Shown piece after piece: positions 1 through 5,474 of a DNA stretch of 5,474 nucleotides. Source of the DNA: a virus (Duplodnaviria > Heunggongvirae > Uroviricota > Caudoviricetes). The notes under the pieces are model-generated. The model saw only the letters and a program-made list of their open reading frames with translations, did no database searches and was not told where the DNA came from. Made by a program: the position numbers and the translations under genes. How positions within the stretch are numbered: the stretch's first letter is position 1; each line of letters opens with the position of its first letter. Location of the stretch: positions 1 through 5,474 of the IMG/VR virus record IMGVR_UViG_2684622670_000024; one strand, 5' to 3'.

Positions 1-417
1 GATTCACATAACCCACTGATTTTTGTCAGTTAAAAACAAATTTACACGTAGCAATTTATCAAAAGTGATACACCGAATGATATACGGATCGATACACAGC
101 GCCACAATCTCAAAAAAGCACCAGCACAATTAGAAGGCCGCGAGTATACAACATCAGAAACAGGAGAGGGCAAAGCACGTAATAATTTTCGTTTTTCACA
201 AACGCAAAAATTTGGCGAGGCTGGCGGTCCCGGCAACATGAAGCTACATAGATTTTGATCCCCTGCATGGTGATGATGCCCATACAGGGCTATTTCATTT
301 CAACGGAACCAGTATGACGAACATGATCGCACCTTCTCCCGAAAACGGTGCGACCTCCATAGAGGAAATGCCTATTCAGATCCCCGGTGATTTTCACCAT
401 TCAGAATCTGGAGGGTG

Positions 418-433
418 AGTTTTCCAGTTTTCC
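418..433 (+). repeat. Tandem direct repeat AGTTTTCC x2, with related GTTTYC motifs at 582-589, 728-736 and 793-802
   Basis: AGTTTTCC at 418-425 and 426-433. GGTTTCCG (582-589), GGTTTCCCC (728-736) and GGTTTCTTCC (793-802) each lie beside an IHF-consensus site. Confidence 0.4.
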
Positions 434-453
434 CCAATGGGGGATTCTGGAAC

Positions 454-466
454 AATCAACGGGTTA
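454..466 (+). promoter_or_regulatory. IHF core-consensus match (AATCAACGGGTTA), site D
   Basis: Exact fit to WATCARNNNNTTR. The 13-mer is identical to site B except for the first base; it lacks the upstream CGAAAA tract. Confidence 0.4.
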
Positions 467-587
467 CGCCTTACCAGCAAAAAAGCACATCAACTGTAAC
501 GGAAATCGTTATGGCTGCTGGTGGGCCAAATCATCATTACGGTGATGCAGCTATGTAGACGTTCCGGTCTCCTCAAATCGAGGTTTC

Positions 588-606
588 CGAAAATATCAGT
601 GAGTTA
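588..606 (+). promoter_or_regulatory. IHF core-consensus match with upstream A-tract (CGAAAATATCAGTGAGTTA), site A
   Basis: TATCAGTGAGTTA fits WATCARNNNNTTR (R=G); preceded by the CGAAAA tract shared with sites B and C. Confidence 0.45.
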
Positions 607-628
607 GCGATTAAGCTGGCGAGTAATT

Positions 629-651
629 AAACTACGAAAATTTCGTAGTTT
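629..651. repeat. Perfect 23-bp palindrome AAACTACGAAA-A-TTTCGTAGTTT (11-1-11)
   Basis: Arms 629-639 and 641-651 are exact reverse complements. AT-rich; shares CGAAAAT with the IHF-site flank. Looks like a dimeric-protein operator rather than a terminator (no GC-rich stem or U-tract). Confidence 0.6.
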
Positions 652-653
652 GT

Positions 654-672
654 GACTATCTGAAAGATAGTC
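654..672. repeat. Perfect inverted repeat GACTATC-TGAAA-GATAGTC (7-5-7)
   Basis: Arms 654-660 and 666-672 are exact reverse complements; it lies 2 bp from the 23-bp palindrome. Confidence 0.55.
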
Positions 673-703
673 GGTTGATCCGGCCTCAGCCGTTGGCTGT
701 TCC

Positions 704-722
704 CGAAAATATCAACGGGTTA
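704..722 (+). promoter_or_regulatory. IHF core-consensus match with upstream A-tract (CGAAAATATCAACGGGTTA), site B
   Basis: TATCAACGGGTTA is an exact fit to WATCAANNNNTTR; the A-rich 5' flank resembles high-affinity IHF sites. Flanked by the inverted CCCG...CGGG. Confidence 0.5.
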
Positions 723-757
723 GGCTGGTTTCCCCGATGTTCGCCGCTGGCGAATTT

Positions 758-776
758 CGAAAATATCAACCAGTTA
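758..776 (+). promoter_or_regulatory. IHF core-consensus match with upstream A-tract (CGAAAATATCAACCAGTTA), site C
   Basis: TATCAACCAGTTA is an exact fit; it overlaps the 8-bp palindrome TTTCGAAA (755-762) and the stop codon of the 96-aa ORF. Confidence 0.5.
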
Positions 777-1064
777 CCGCCGTAACCGTTCCGGTTTCTT
801 CCAGTGGTAAGTATTTTTCGCGCTCTCCCTCCGTTGCTGAGAACGGCGACGACATGCCAGCAACTCGAGAACTCTGGTTCGTATGTTGCGCATATCCACG
901 CCGTTAAGCTCGATACCGTCACGGCGCATCACCTCAGCCACTACACGCGCGTAATTTTCGGCTATCACGCTGTCCGGCTGCGTGGCCTGTTCGTCATGCT
1001 GCTGGCTGATTCCGGTAACGCGGCGGATTATTTTTAGTAGTTCGGTTTCGCTCATTCTCGTCAT
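774..1064 (-). CDS. Hypothetical protein, translationally coupled to terL; function unknown
   Basis: 96 aa (MTRMSETELLKIIRRVTGISQQHDEQ...RRRSQQRRESAKNTYHWKKPERLRR). ATG at 1062-1064 overlaps the TerL stop (ATGA). Same strand as the operon, helical-looking body with a strongly basic C-terminal tail. I do not recognise a family. Its stop codon (774-776) coincides with the TTA of an IHF-consensus site. Confidence 0.5.
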   Translation of the reverse strand: MTRMSETELLKIIRRVTGISQQHDEQATQPDSVIAENYARVVAEVMRRDGIELNGVDMRNIRTRVLELLACRRRSQQRRESAKNTYHWKKPERLRR

Positions 1065-2722
1065 ACCCCATCAAACGCCGCAAGCCGCTCTTTGTGGCTG
1101 TCGCTTATATCAAATGCAAATTCCTCATGCTCTGCCTGGAATGTGCCAAACGCCATCAGCGCCGCAACGCTCGGATCTATCTTGTTGGATGATTTTTTCT
1201 TGTTCGGCTTGATATTGGCGTTCGCGTCACTCTGCATCACAACATTACTCATTGACCAGGCCAGCACCGGATCACCACGATGCACAATCACCTTCCGGTT
1301 AACAAAAACTTCGAACGATTTCGCCGCCGGACTGAAACGAAGGTATGTTTGCGGGAACGGCTCCACCTCAAATCCTGCGCCCTGTAGCTGCGTCCTCAGG
1401 TGCGTGGCGTTCCATGTATCGAAGCCCACCAGTCTGATATTGAAATTCTCTGCATCCGCCATGATGTCATCGCGGATACGGTCATAATCAATGCAGTCAC
1501 CCGGTGTTGTGCGTATCCAGCCCGCCTTTGCCCACTGGCGATAGATGGCGCGGTTTTTATTGGCGGGGTTCTGTAGCTGAAATTCCGGCAGATAGTGACG
1601 GGAAACCAGCATAATCTTTTTACCGACCGGAAAGGCATAGCACACGCTGGAAATATCGCTGGTTGATGATAAGTCCAGCCCCGCGTAGCACTCCTGCCCG
1701 TATAAATCCGCCTCCGCGAACGTTCCGGCGCACTCCGCCCATGCACCGTTACCCATCCACGGCGTAGCCCCCTGACACCAGATATTGAATCGCTTGGTGA
1801 GCATTTCCACCCACTGCGACGGAATACCCCGCGCTTTCTGGATGGTTGAGGCCAGTTTTTCACGATCGACGGAAACATCGATATTGGGATTCGCCTTTAT
1901 CCACATCGCCGGATCGTCAACCTCGCTTTCATCATCCAGCTCGTAAATAAGCACGAACATGGATTCGTTCACCTCTTCACCATCCAGTATCTGGCAGCAA
2001 TAGTCGTAGTGTTGTTTACAGGCTGAAACAACGTTGCTCCCCGATGTGGTGATGGCAAATAATAACCCCTCCGGACGCGCCCCCATTCCCAGTTCAAGCG
2101 CGGAATAAACCCCGTTGTCAGGGTGCAGGTGATATTCATCCACAATGGCGAGACTCGGGTTTGTCCCCTCAATGGTTGCCGCTTTTGCTGCCAGTGGCTT
2201 TAACAGGCTGTTGGTTTTCGGGTGTATCACCTTGTGCGCCTGAATATTTACCCGCTTTCGTAACGGTCGGGATAAAAGGCACATCTGACGCGCATCATCA
2301 AACACGATCCGCGCCTGATCACGACTCACGGCGGCGGTGTAAATATCCTGCTGCCCGTGTTCCATAACCAGAAACCAGTTAGCCAGGATAGCGGCGACCG
2401 TGGATTTGGCATTTTTTCGCGGTACTTCAATGAATGCGCTGGTGTATTTGCGCCGTCCGGTGGCCTTAACCTTAAAGCCCAGGATGCAGGCAAAGGCGAA
2501 CTGCTGCCACGGCTCCAGCTCAATGGGGCTACCGCGCATTGCGCCTTTTACGTGCGGACACACCCTGGAAAAGGCAATAAACCGCTCCACGACCTCCGGA
2601 TCGAACGTGTAAAGGGGGTTTTCAAGGTCAGAAAAATACCGTTTAACGGCCTGTTTCAGTCGTTTACAGGCCGTAATTTTGCCGTTTTTTACGCCTTCTG
2701 CGTACTCATGCCAGGCGGTCAA
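1061..2722 (-). CDS. terL: Terminase large subunit (ATPase + nuclease)
   Basis: 553 aa. Deviant Walker A (EVPRKNAKST), Walker B (LAIVDEYH, hydrophobic run + DE), and a C-terminal RNase-H-like nuclease region with acidic residues in GLDLSSTSD, VGFDTWNA and KIDPSVAALMA. The only in-frame start candidate after the upstream stop (TAA 2765-2767) is TTG at 2720-2722, preceded by a strong SD (GAGGAAGAGGA) and lying 17 nt inside the 3' end of terS. Stop TGA 1061-1063 overlaps the ATG of the next ORF. Confidence 0.9.
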   Translation of the reverse strand: MTAWHEYAEGVKNGKITACKRLKQAVKRYFSDLENPLYTFDPEVVERFIAFSRVCPHVKGAMRGSPIELEPWQQFAFACILGFKVKATGRRKYTSAFIEVPRKNAKSTVAAILANWFLVMEHGQQDIYTAAVSRDQARIVFDDARQMCLLSRPLRKRVNIQAHKVIHPKTNSLLKPLAAKAATIEGTNPSLAIVDEYHLHPDNGVYSALELGMGARPEGLLFAITTSGSNVVSACKQHYDYCCQILDGEEVNESMFVLIYELDDESEVDDPAMWIKANPNIDVSVDREKLASTIQKARGIPSQWVEMLTKRFNIWCQGATPWMGNGAWAECAGTFAEADLYGQECYAGLDLSSTSDISSVCYAFPVGKKIMLVSRHYLPEFQLQNPANKNRAIYRQWAKAGWIRTTPGDCIDYDRIRDDIMADAENFNIRLVGFDTWNATHLRTQLQGAGFEVEPFPQTYLRFSPAAKSFEVFVNRKVIVHRGDPVLAWSMSNVVMQSDANANIKPNKKKSSNKIDPSVAALMAFGTFQAEHEEFAFDISDSHKERLAAFDGV

Positions 2723-3062
2723 GCTCGTCCTCTTCCTCTGTTTCCGGTGGATTTCTGCGGCGGCTTACCGGGTCAAAACCCAGCAAAGAAGCCATTTTGA
2801 TCATTATTCTTTCTGCGTCAGCCTTTGCGCTCAGGGCGGGGTTTCTGCTCTCGCTGCCCTGACTGTTAACAATGCTGAACCCGCGCGTCGCAAGGTCTTC
2901 GACGGCTTTGCGGTATATAGAGTAGTTAACGCAATACAGTTCCAGATTGCTCCAGTCGGCGGGGGTAAGGTCTTCCCGCCCGGAAAGCTGGCGCGATTTT
3001 TCCTTCCACTGCCTGACCGCGATTTCATCCAGGTAAGCGGGGGCTTTTGGTGGTCTTGCCAT
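2706..3062 (-). CDS. terS: Terminase small subunit, P27-family-like (start placed at the internal ATG 3060-3062; the six-frame ORF extends to an ATG at 3201-3203)
   Basis: From the internal Met the product is 118 aa beginning MARPPKAPAYLDEIAVRQWKE..., which matches the M-x-(G)RPPK N-terminus and size typical of P27-family small terminases. The 47-aa upstream extension (MFSQSLVRPSEGVGEVFRTKPPLPDTDRLLKFLCTGIFLKIIGRKKN) is not protein-like to my eye, but the ATG at 3201-3203 has a better SD (GAGGT, 6-nt spacing) than the ATG at 3060-3062. Acidic C-terminal tail ...PETEEEDELDRLA. Stop TGA at 2706-2708. Confidence 0.7.
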   Translation of the reverse strand: MARPPKAPAYLDEIAVRQWKEKSRQLSGREDLTPADWSNLELYCVNYSIYRKAVEDLATRGFSIVNSQGSESRNPALSAKADAERIMIKMASLLGFDPVSRRRNPPETEEEDELDRLA

Positions 3063-3350
3063 GTTCTTTTTTCGCCCAATTATTTTCAAAAAAATTCCCG
3101 TGCACAAAAATTTGAGGAGGCGGTCGGTGTCCGGCAGGGGCGGTTTCGTCCTGAAAACCTCCCCCACCCCCTCTGACGGCCTCACCAGCGATTGCGAAAA
3201 CATTCCATGACCTCGCGGTCACGGTCGGTTAATCGCTTCGCTGTGGTGCGTTCTGTGCGCTCTGTCCTGTTGGCTTTGTGCCCTGTCTCCTGTGTCTTCC
3301 ATAAGTCACGCTGCCTTATCAGTCCACGTATCAGCCTGTTTTGCTCCTGT
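3063..3350 (-). promoter_or_regulatory. Structured HNH-terS intergenic region; candidate cos / terminase-recognition region
   Basis: About 288 bp non-coding if terS starts at 3062. Contains a CTGT-rich block (eight CTGT in 3241-3350; ACAG(G) on the coding strand), an imperfect dyad GACC-TCGC-GGTC (3209-3220) flanked by inverted AGCGATT (3187-3193) / AATCGCT (3231-3237), and a C5-A-C5 tract (3161-3171). In HK97-like phages cos lies between the HNH gene and terS. Confidence 0.4.
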
Positions 3351-3791
3351 TCAGTCATCATCGCCATACATCCAGTCGTTACGATGTGCCGCCCGTTCTT
3401 CCTGCTCGCGATACATGCCCGCCTTACGGTTCGCTTTCGTGGCTGGATCTTCCCGTGTCGTCTTACGGTTGTGGCACGTCTGGCACAATGCCTGGTGGTT
3501 CCACTCAGGCCAGAAGAGAACATCACCGCCGCCATTGATGGGAATGATGTGATCCACCACAAGAGCTGGCGTATAAATACCCTTAGCCAGACAACGCACG
3601 CATAACGGATTTTTTTTCAGGTACAGGGCGCGGTATTTGTCCCACAGTCGGGAATACCCACGTGCGCGGCGGTGTCCCCGTCTGGCATCCTCTGCACGCC
3701 ATGCAGCCCGCCTGTGCTCTTCACACTTGCCGGACTTCACGCGCTTATTACAGCCCGGCTCAGTGCATCGCCTTAATGGTTGCCATGGCAT
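3351..3791 (-). CDS. HNH endonuclease, terminase-associated type
   Basis: 146 aa; N-terminal Cys cluster (RCTEPGCNKRV...GKCEEH) and a classic HNH core (VVDHIIPINGGGD ... WNHQALCQTCHNRKT). It sits immediately upstream of the small terminase, the arrangement known for HNH proteins that assist cos-cleaving terminases in HK97-like phages. Possible SD GGGGGTG about 7 nt upstream of the ATG. Confidence 0.88.
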   Translation of the reverse strand: MPWQPLRRCTEPGCNKRVKSGKCEEHRRAAWRAEDARRGHRRARGYSRLWDKYRALYLKKNPLCVRCLAKGIYTPALVVDHIIPINGGGDVLFWPEWNHQALCQTCHNRKTTREDPATKANRKAGMYREQEERAAHRNDWMYGDDD

Positions 3792-4087
3792 CAGTACACC
3801 CCCACATCACGATAAACCGACCAGAGCGCGGAAATCGTCAGGGGAATTTCTTTTGTATCGGTATCGCCAAGCGTTGTCCGGTACTCGTACAGTTGCGAGA
3901 TATACATCAGGCAACCAATTTTTATTGCAGGGGTAAATTCCAGGCCGTCATCAAAACGCCTGCCAATATGCTTCTGGCATACCTCCAGCGCCGCGCTTAT
4001 GTATGCCTGAATCAGTGTGTCTTCTGTGTTACCATCTATGCGGCAGTGAAGTTTGGCCTCTTCCAGGGTTATTTTTTCTGCTGTCAT
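3791..4087 (-). CDS. Phage gp6-like head-tail connector protein
   Basis: 98 aa; N-terminal ...ITLEEAKLHCRIDGNTEDTLIQAYISAALEVCQKHIGR... fits the gp6-like connector pattern (L-E-x-A-K-x-H-x-R-I-D, then D/E-D-x-L-I-x-x-Y-I-x-A-A). ATG 4085-4087 overlaps the upstream stop; stop TGA 3791-3793 shares one base with the HNH ATG (3789-3791; TGATG junction on the coding strand). Confidence 0.78.
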   Translation of the reverse strand: MTAEKITLEEAKLHCRIDGNTEDTLIQAYISAALEVCQKHIGRRFDDGLEFTPAIKIGCLMYISQLYEYRTTLGDTDTKEIPLTISALWSVYRDVGVY

Positions 4088-4422
4088 TTTTCTGTACCCA
4101 CCTTTGCCAGAATTTCCAGCCGGGTTCTTTTCGCATCAGGTAAGGGGATCCCGATGATATTAAGCGTGCTCCCGGCAAAAGCGCCGGTAAGCACTTTCAG
4201 GCGACTGGCGGCGGATATGTCGCCACGATAGCGAACCCATACCCGAATCGTTGCAGGTGCGGTTTCTGCGCCTGCGGTCAGCAATTCCCGTCCGCTGATC
4301 CCCTTGACCTCTGCCCAGATGGTTTCCCCTTCCGTCCATATCTGCTGGATCGCACCTGACGGCAGGCGCTGTGTGGTAAATGTCATAATCGTCACCCGGT
4401 CCCGCATCTTTCCGGCTATCAT
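4084..4422 (-). CDS. Phage head-closure / head-tail adaptor protein (head-tail joining family)
   Basis: 112 aa; N-terminal MxxGKMRDRVTI... is the signature opening of head-tail joining/head-closure proteins as I recall them. ATG at 4420-4422 overlaps the portal stop (ATGA arrangement); its own stop TGA at 4084-4086 overlaps the next ATG (4085-4087). Confidence 0.75.
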   Translation of the reverse strand: MIAGKMRDRVTIMTFTTQRLPSGAIQQIWTEGETIWAEVKGISGRELLTAGAETAPATIRVWVRYRGDISAASRLKVLTGAFAGSTLNIIGIPLPDAKRTRLEILAKVGTEK

Positions 4423-5474
4423 TCGTCACCGCCCTTACTGTTCTTGCTGATTGTCACTTCCTGCTTCCATGCCTGGCTGAACTCGTCACCACCTTCACGC
4501 GGCGGCATCCCCTCACGCTCACGGGCTTCGTTCGGATTCATGATCCCGTTCTTAATCCCTTTCTCATACGTGGCGTAACGTTCGGTAGGGGTGGCGCGCA
4601 GTAAATCGGCTGAATCAAACTCAACCAGATAACGGGTACCAGGTACGGGAGAAGCCATCAGCAAAGCAGCCTTGATTTGCTGTTCGAAGTTCGCCAGCCA
4701 CGGGCGCATTGTCATGGTCAGAAACGCGCGGCTTGCCTCACTGAAATTGCTGTAGGTGCTGTTGCTGTATTCCTGAAGAAAAATCGGCGACACGTTGAAC
4801 ATACGAGCAATGTCTTCAATGGAGAAGCGACGGGAGGCCAGCCATTCCGCATCCTGGTTACTCATCCCCAGTTGCTTGTAATCCATGCCCCCTTCAAGGA
4901 TTGGCGTTTTTCCGGCATTTTTCGCCCCCTTATAGCGTTCCAGAGCATCTAATGCCTGTTTACCTTTCACGCCGTCCAGCCATTCGCCTGACGTGATAAT
5001 CCCTGCCGCCATCATGCCATCTTTCATAATGCTGGCTCCGTGACGCTGTTGAGCAAGGCCAAGCCCAAGTGCCTCACGGCAAATCGTGACAGGGGAGCGC
5101 CCCAGAAAGCCATCATCCGAGGCATAGCGGAGATGCAGAACTTCTTCCTGTAAATACGTGCGCACCGTTCCTGTATAGGGTTCGGTGATGGTATAGCGGT
5201 ATTTGTGTGCGCCTGTGCGTTCCGGTACAACACAACCCGGTGCATAAGGATGAAGTGATTTTGGCTGACCGTCCCGCCCCCACTCAATAACCGCATAGGC
5301 GTTACCGTTCAGCAGGCAGTGACGCATCATTGTGCGTTTAAACTGGTAAGGTGTCTGGCATGAATTTGGCTGCTCATTCAGCAGAATATCTACCGGGTGA
5401 CTGTCCAGCCATTCCCGCGCCTCCCTGCCCTTGTCATTACGTACCAGATACAGATAACACGGCATCGTGGCCAC
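4419..5474 (-). CDS. Phage portal protein (HK97-family-like), 5'-partial; the ORF runs off the right edge of the window, so the true N-terminus is not in view
   Basis: 351 aa visible. Central and C-terminal segments (e.g. ...DAEWLASRRFSIEDIARMFNVSPIFLQEYSNSTYSNFSEASRAFLTMTMRPWLANFEQQI... and ...RYLVEFDSADLLRATPTERYATYEKGIKNGIMNPNEAREREGMPP...) match what I recall of the conserved core and C-terminal region of HK97-type portal proteins. Stop TGA at 4419-4421 overlaps the next gene's ATG (4420-4422). The first codon in the window is GTG, which is not the real start. Confidence 0.82.
   Translation of the reverse strand: MATMPCYLYLVRNDKGREAREWLDSHPVDILLNEQPNSCQTPYQFKRTMMRHCLLNGNAYAVIEWGRDGQPKSLHPYAPGCVVPERTGAHKYRYTITEPYTGTVRTYLQEEVLHLRYASDDGFLGRSPVTICREALGLGLAQQRHGASIMKDGMMAAGIITSGEWLDGVKGKQALDALERYKGAKNAGKTPILEGGMDYKQLGMSNQDAEWLASRRFSIEDIARMFNVSPIFLQEYSNSTYSNFSEASRAFLTMTMRPWLANFEQQIKAALLMASPVPGTRYLVEFDSADLLRATPTERYATYEKGIKNGIMNPNEAREREGMPPREGGDEFSQAWKQEVTISKNSKGGDE

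Follow-up and report, generated by a model that had tools for sequence, protein, structure and literature searches.

The window, by which we mean the whole 5,474-nt stretch of DNA analysed here (positions 1 to 5,474 of the Caudoviricetes record IMG/VR IMGVR_UViG_2684622670_000024), carries on its minus strand a block of late genes: a partial portal gene, head-completion, head-tail connector, HNH, TerS and TerL genes, and a 96-aa ORF ending at 774. Pfam matches in the window are to TerL, Terminase_4, HNH, Phage_connect_1, Phage_HCP and Phage_portal. The last gene, orf96 (774-1064), was considered as a candidate Rpp and rejected: it has no PDB match, and RppA corresponds to a 144-aa gene upstream of the orf96 homologue in EcCICFT073. 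At the left edge of the window lies the flank under study (1-453), whose first part (1-286) is an att arm module on the integrase-distal, hpt side and whose second (287-453) opens a hairpin-rich terminal module that continues to ~547 and beyond.

The closest relatives with the entire window, Br_190_kylling and E2528-C1 (96-97% identity), have hpt and gcd separated by an element of 15.3 kb. Its genes are, in order, int, a 309-aa ORF, an alpA-type HTH gene, an icd-like gene, DUF4222, primase or helicase and ssb, continuing with ProQ/FinO, capsid, protease, portal, connector, HNH, terS, terL and orf96, and all these genes are oriented toward hpt. Prohead protease and major capsid protein are annotated in these two relatives, and no tail or lysis gene was found between their att copies. 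The Phage_HCP gene (4084-4422) occurs in the window and in capsid-forming PICIs (cf-PICIs) at the yifB site; it is missing in Br_190_kylling, E2528-C1 and D8, where the portal gene abuts the connector gene. In the yifB-site cf-PICIs, whose late module is nearly the same, insertion is at the 5' end of yifB (comM-like; L005 1973-3337, L007 2282-3646), and since PGAP calls yifB partial there, its N-terminus missing, this site may not be repaired like hpt.

Composition and coding content of the left flank

The earlier note put the first 120 bp at about 35% G+C, and the computed fraction for 1-120 is indeed 0.350, versus 0.45-0.63 in the coding block. The first 120 nt are similarly low in G+C (29-35%) in 11 of 11 homologous arms from other strains and genera, so that low G+C is a genuine trait of this element end and not noise. 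The same note saw no coding ORF of 65 aa or more, which stands insofar as 1-453 contains no credible gene but overlooks a minus-strand ORF of exactly 65 aa (42-239); a second minus-strand ORF has 57 aa (110-283). A Pfam search of the small ORFs in the flank, including the 65-aa ORF and a 34-aa plus-strand ORF at 314-418, gave no match, and a comparison of homologous arms found no ORF kept across the diverged ones. In three annotated relatives with the window's arm, PGAP leaves the interval from hpt to the last element gene without a CDS.

The 34-aa ORF is present with the translation given earlier, and a purine run lies 1 nt from its ATG. In relatives it is either 34 or 21 aa long, an 87%-identical copy having many non-synonymous changes, and because its start falls in an invariant block at 313-360, its first 12 codons are conserved as DNA. 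On these sequence comparisons the ORF is judged non-coding. A PGAP "hypothetical protein" over the homologous region of strain O177:H21 was likewise set aside as DNA-level repeat conservation, not protein conservation.

The absence of a tRNA-like T-arm is borne out by ARAGORN, which finds no tRNA or tmRNA, and an Rfam search of 1-1100 at a permissive threshold returned two chance-level matches only, none below E = 0.3. A regulatory or ncRNA role had also been proposed for the flank: the regulatory half is plausible in view of a promoter-like box facing hpt (see below), while the ncRNA half meets with no Rfam match and no covariation. We therefore weighed the reading in which the flank encodes a small RNA or a small protein (from the 34-aa ORF or the minus-strand 57/65-aa ORFs). 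The minus-strand fold of 150-453 beats shuffled sequences (z = -2.54; 0 of 100 shuffles fold as well), and the 48-nt block at 313-360 (GTATGACGAACATGATCGCACCTTCTCCCGAAAACGG...) is identical in 8 of 8 aligned relatives while its flanks are at 76-92% identity (alignment A2), both of which would suit such a product. However, RNAalifold on eight relatives of 287-470 detects no compensatory pair, neither the length nor the sequence of the ORFs is conserved, and the Rfam, Pfam and PGAP results point the same way, which makes this reading improbable. The motif TTCGTCATRC of the invariant block recurs as inverted copies at 988-1001 and 1056-1066, inside and at the start of orf96.

Element boundary and att core

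The flank 1-453 is most probably the integrase-distal terminus of a ~15-kb capsid-forming PICI, a small phage-parasite island that a tyrosine integrase placed within the first codons of hpt. The boundary itself is read in relatives: window 1-800 is 99.8% identical to E. coli U90 (L001), in which the minus-strand gene hpt lies leftward and its ATG immediately precedes base 1; L003 and L004, the other two relatives that were read, show the same junction. As hpt is outside the window, its adjacency comes from relatives that are 100% identical over 1-290 and ~96-97% identical over the rest of the window. We infer that the DNA left of base 1 in the source would read ATGAAACATATTGTAGAAG..., that is, hpt on the minus strand.

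The att core is a 19-bp sequence (CTTCTACARTATGTTTCAT, hpt codons 1-6) that adjoins the left edge of the window, ending exactly one base before it, and is repeated ~15.3 kb away, the far copy standing beside a tyrosine integrase gene, next to gcd. The direct repeat reads CTTCTACAATATGTTTCAT at hpt and CTTCTACAGTATGTTTCAT at gcd and is the reverse complement of hpt nucleotides 1-19; its inverted symmetry is weak (ACA-nnn-TGT around the T/C position), and literature searches with the core sequence found nothing. Elements of 10.8-16.1 kb are bracketed by this repeat, and when the element plus one repeat copy is excised in silico from five independent occupied genomes, what is left matches the K-12 hpt-gcd spacer, with 0-2 mismatches over 400 nt. 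Of 5426 complete E. coli genomes, 5354 have the site empty, matching without interruption a 120-nt probe that spans it in K-12, and 71 have it split. The Hpt N-terminus reads MKHIVEV in occupied genomes versus MKHTVEV in K-12; the element allele (Thr4Ile) is kept on the hpt side, which places the crossover within TGTAGAAG, hpt nt 12-19. In all five annotated occupied genomes hpt is an intact ORF with an identical protein accession.

These data also bear on where host DNA begins. The suggestion that the flank marks an element boundary or host junction was right about a boundary with strain polymorphism and an attachment-site function, which falls immediately before base 1, and the search for a direct repeat at the opposite end of the element recovers the core copy at the gcd side; the junction, though, is at the left edge of the window and not within 1-453, and the core att site and host DNA expected inside the flank both lie immediately left of base 1. 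A junction and core inside 1-453, with part of the flank being host chromosome, would agree with an AT-rich, gene-free stretch that adjoins the last element gene and with the weak similarity of 1-45 to the native hpt leader. Against it, window 1-290 is absent from 5400 of the 5426 E. coli genomes, all of which have the hpt-gcd spacer, and the repeated core stops short of the window. Found at ≥98.6% identity in only 9 of the 5426, 1-290 is thus element DNA and not host DNA. An internal junction is refuted for the E. coli relatives and extremely improbable for the window itself. With the placement at the first hpt codons, the exact left boundary of the element is now set, and 1-453 is free of host DNA.

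Anatomy of the two att arms

Diverged E. coli hpt-site elements (D8, QL57) have only 8-148/160 in common with the window, at 70-75% identity. PICIs at the yifB, yejO and clpS sites have common sequence only right of ~287 and possess their own arms with a different repeat (ATAACCCGCAA, three copies). The arm module, whose base 1 directly follows the core, therefore travels with the integrase type.

The first segment of the arm (1-45, minus strand) is a replacement leader for hpt that copies the native 5' leader in degenerate form (AAATCA..TGG.TTA....ATG, ATTTGTTTTTAA); the local alignment of the two leaders is weakly significant (p about 0.02). Homology of the element's -10 region to native hpt promoters was also considered and rejected, the weak similarity being limited to the ATG-proximal leader. 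Photorhabdus and Xenorhabdus arms provide a different in-frame hpt start (MSKPKHIVEV). Overlapping the leader are an imperfect palindrome at 15-30 (ACTGATTTTTGTCAGT; perfect, ACTGATTTTAATCAGT, in related arms of alignment A1) and a predicted IHF site at 9-21 (minus strand, AATCAGTGGGTTA), which lies between the core and the arm-type repeats. The IHF pattern WATCARNNNNTTR has 5 matches in the window versus 0.32 expected; in the arms of D8 and QL57 the site at 9-21 does not fit the consensus.

Three arm-type repeats follow on the plus strand at 66-98 with a 12-nt period: TGATACACC (66-74), TGATATACG (78-86) and CGATACACA (90-98). The arm-repeat pattern has 2 matches versus 0.00 expected, and the first two repeats are invariant in ten aligned arms from seven genera (A1: E. 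coli, Raoultella, Klebsiella, Erwinia dacicola, Serratia, Photorhabdus and Xenorhabdus). A co-oriented trio stands beside int (L003 27135-27170), 24-59 nt from the int start codon, the repeat centres being ~85 nt (hpt side) and ~147 nt (int side) from the core centre. Beyond the repeats come a conserved block at 112-128 (AAAAAAGCACCAGCAC; AAAGCATGAGMAC in other arms), in which A115-C127 is nearly invariant (A1), and a lineage-specific spacer (149-286) with a hairpin at 261-289 that has a 10-bp stem with a G-U pair on the minus strand. This spacer is found in only the 9 genomes with the window's arm, a fragment of it (206-290) occurring in one more.

At the other end, L003, L004, L008 and L009 each encode a 406-408 aa Int at the gcd end, and the L003 Int has Pfam matches to Phage_integrase and Arm-DNA-bind_3. 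Int orthologues at 58-80% identity lie beside the TGATAYAC motif in five other genera, and the arm architecture is found beside hpt or int in Klebsiella, Raoultella, Serratia, Erwinia, Photorhabdus, Xenorhabdus, Kluyvera and Winslowiella. The pattern used for the genome collection, with 17 specified bases, was too loose, most of its 120 matches being chance and ~14 Enterobacterales loci useful. The TGATAYAC repeats are presumably what the arm-binding domain of the integrase recognises. In the excised circle, the three repeats of the hpt-side arm and the int-side trio would then be held by the arm-binding domains, and an IHF bend of the AT-rich spacer would bring about an intasome on the core.

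The hpt locus of Photorhabdus kayaii (L084 4434-7549) has two complete tandem hpt genes separated by 2 kb. The one adjoining a satellite arm starts in the satellite fashion (MSKPKHIVEV); the other resembles native hpt (MKHTVEV) and is preceded by a degenerate arm-like repeat. GNAT/RHH toxin-antitoxin-like ORFs lie between the two.

The terminal module

From ~287 rightward, the sequence is 76-97% identical to many E. coli PICIs, those at other att sites and EcCICFT073 included, and a query with 150-560 matches 251 genomes. In PICIs this module is always positioned between the last gene (an orf96/c1504-like ORF) and the att arm. It is mosaic, with breakpoints at ~287, 423-430, 547, 711 and 755-786 that coincide with the edges of repeat units. 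These units (repeat family D1) are 45 nt long and consist of a variable hairpin followed by an IHF consensus: the first is at 423-467 on the plus strand, its IHF consensus at 454-466, and further ones are at 563-607, 679-723 and 733-777. Hairpin pairing is kept in relatives despite changes from CCCCC/GGGGG to CCACC/GGTGG.

Strain U90 has a classical PICI of 10.8 kb, not capsid-forming, which at L001 20001-21059 is 97.8% identical to window 1-1056 and then diverges completely. The 1,056 terminal nucleotides that the two have in common comprise the att arm, the repeat units and orf96. A classical PICI with the terminus of a cf-PICI indicates that the terminal module is exchanged between PICI types.

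The Roi protein of phage HK022 binds a site inside its own gene, next to an IHF site. The 45-nt units are homologous to a segment within the roi genes of lambdoid phages, which also has an IHF consensus (PhiR49_2 roi, GTCCGGTCTCCTCAAATTGAGGTTTCCGAAAGAATCAATAACTTAGG, is 96.7% identical to window 563-592 over 30 nt), and window 490-520 matches ant genes of Stx phages in 254 records. The units could be mimics of Roi/IHF sites, or else relics of recombination with helper phages.

Because IHF-type sites and repeats recall the layout of lambda cosB, and because the flank comes after the terminase genes, the satellite's packaging (cos) region was another candidate for this stretch. We give it hardly any credence: a search for lambda-type cosN gave no more matches than shuffled sequences, and the two perfect cosN copies of EcCICFT073 flank rppA and do not lie in the 45-nt repeats (PMC6739421). 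The virion-derived genome of vB_KppS-Ant, a related fis-type cf-PICI, starts 22 nt before terS and ends after an HNH-side small ORF; with the ends of the virion DNA between that ORF and terS, cos would by homology fall at window 3063-3350, a G+C-rich stretch.

A candidate substitute promoter for hpt

Integration of such an element would strand the native hpt promoter on its far side. In occupied genomes, the native promoter region, including TGGTATACT at 83 nt upstream of the ATG, is found on the gcd/int side, 15 kb from hpt, and the arm would thus supply hpt's replacement signals: a new leader, a start-codon context and, most likely, a promoter (TATACT, 148-143, minus strand). This -10-like hexamer (143-148), followed by the G+C-rich CGCGGCC, faces hpt with a predicted transcription start near 136. 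Located ~148 nt upstream of the ATG, it is the top-scoring -10-like site on the hpt-sense strand of the window's arm; its reverse orientation is not promoter-like. Of 12 arms compared, 11 have such a box at 145-151 nt before the ATG, where it ranks best or second-best of 231 positions; the Serratia arm has none there. Its variants are TATACT, TATGCT and, in two arms, TATAAT, none of which alters the critical T and A or the final T, and five related arms, the window's not among them, have a TG extension. From its constant position in 11 of 12 arms, we infer that it may drive hpt. If the box is used, the conserved block 112-128 lies within the transcribed leader.

The arrangement of terminators bears on the same question. 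In QL57-type, Raoultella and several metagenomic arms, an intrinsic terminator of the late operon, with hairpin sequences that differ, stands ~25 nt upstream of the box (173-198 nt upstream of the ATG in QL57-type arms), so that any hpt transcript in these arms must start inside the arm. QL57-type arms have a second, better-looking promoter candidate at -94 (TTCGCA-17-TGcGATAAT) that the window's lineage does not have. This lineage is also without the strong terminator found just upstream of the -10 box in other hpt-site arms; the sole terminator-like hairpin in 1-1100 is at 771-788 on the minus strand, where it overlaps the orf96 stop and the fourth IHF unit.

The window's arm has no usable -35 element, the best being TTGCCC at a 19-nt spacer, and a consensus scan requiring a -35 hexamer finds no promoter in 1-1100. 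This agrees with another reading, in which 112-150, TATACT included, holds sites for accessory proteins (an AlpA-type excisionase or further Int) and hpt is expressed weakly or by read-through only; the element does encode an AlpA-family protein, and two similar half-blocks lie ~23-27 nt apart in several lineages (A1). The box could in that case be the second copy of a direct repeat (GAAAG-N4-5-GAGYA) bound by a protein such as AlpA/Xis. Hpt is non-essential and may thus simply be poorly expressed when its site is occupied. However, variation in the box keeps TAnnnT, with TG extensions or a perfect TATAAT gained in independent arms, and the strong terminators immediately upstream in other lineages argue for a transcription start here. 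The block is also placed outside the arm-type repeats, which is not where the excisionase sites of lambda attP are found. Accessory-protein sites are thus an unlikely explanation of this block, and that the TATACT box is a substitute promoter for hpt appears to us an even proposition.

On the int side, the proximal arm contains a promoter-like site for int itself, 100-125 nt before the gene, and hence int does not depend on the distal box. In Serratia and Winslowiella this site is a strong one (TTGAAA-16-TAAAAT). In L003 (27111-27510), the displaced native hpt promoter and RBS face the core, then the proximal arm, then int, the displaced hpt start now opening a 29-codon hybrid ORF (MKHTVEVKIIL...). 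The host hpt promoter may drive int after integration. A complete promoter swap, in which the distal promoter takes over hpt, the native hpt promoter reads into int and, in the circle, the distal promoter reads int, is a possibility that we advance tentatively and are inclined to doubt.

Discussion

Judged by its genes and its site, the element is most probably an hpt-site capsid-forming PICI, a class already published. The relatives 100% and 98.6% identical over 1-290 have the 5'-hpt insertion and the block repeated at both ends that characterise an hpt-site PICI. The report of 2023 describes 49 PICIs inserted in hpt as a new subfamily and, in its attL/attR alignments, an identity block TATGAAACATA (PMC10111431). 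The published elements have the same target gene, junction, orientation and int-alpA-primase layout as those studied here, and the published hpt attR alignment (...aatcagtgggatataaagttTATGAAACATAttgtagaagtaatgatcccc) is that of a D8-type arm, which we recovered independently in L008 (PMC10111431). The window's arm belongs to another sequence lineage, ~75% identical to this D8-type arm over 8-148, and is associated with a full capsid-forming late module. In its part on hpt PICIs, that report gives the sites and the identity block, without arm repeats or a promoter (PMC10111431). As for the cf-PICIs, the late module of the prototype EcCIEDL933 matches that of the window (HNH, TerS, TerL, portal, connector, head-completion), and our relatives resemble it in their ~15 kb, their int/alpA/primase genes and their lack of tail and lysis genes (bioRxiv 10.1101/2022.09.08.507074); six attB sites are described there for E. 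coli cf-PICIs (bioRxiv 10.1101/2022.09.08.507074).

A doubled, co-oriented attP motif (tgTGTATTGCantgTGTATTGCa), 81 and 132 bp from the attP centre, is described for helper-embedded PICIs and, in the report's account of it, for those only (PMC10111431). The hpt-type repeats are also tandem, with one co-oriented set on each side of the core at comparable distances; they differ in being TGATAYACC, with a 12-nt period and three copies in the window's lineage.

In lambda, attP has arm-type Int sites and IHF sites around the core. The hpt type resembles it: the Int has a domain of its own for arm binding, both arms carry repeats, and a match to the IHF consensus lies between core and repeats. It differs in that the repeats are all co-oriented, the core is in coding sequence and the arm carries a gene-replacement sequence. 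This last property is shared with integrators at icd, tRNA genes and fis, whose attP substitutes the displaced part of the gene, an attP with a replacement sequence that keeps the target gene functional being presented as a general rule (PMC10111431). The distal arm of the fis-type cf-PICI vB_KppS-Ant, for example, carries a near-copy of the fis terminator. Unlike in those systems, it is the 5' end of hpt that is replaced and not the terminator end, and the substitute consequently needs start signals for both translation and transcription.

What is new here is the arm-repeat anatomy of the hpt type together with a testable outward promoter. This anatomy (arm repeats, predicted IHF site, replacement leader) provides a tool to find and delimit such satellites in further genera. 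The outward promoter, if real, would show how a mobile element can insert at a housekeeping gene's 5' end and yet leave the gene unsilenced, the mirror image of the well-known 3'-end replacement at tRNA, icd and fis sites. And if the promoter swap should prove true, recombination itself would rewire both the expression of the satellite integrase and host purine salvage.
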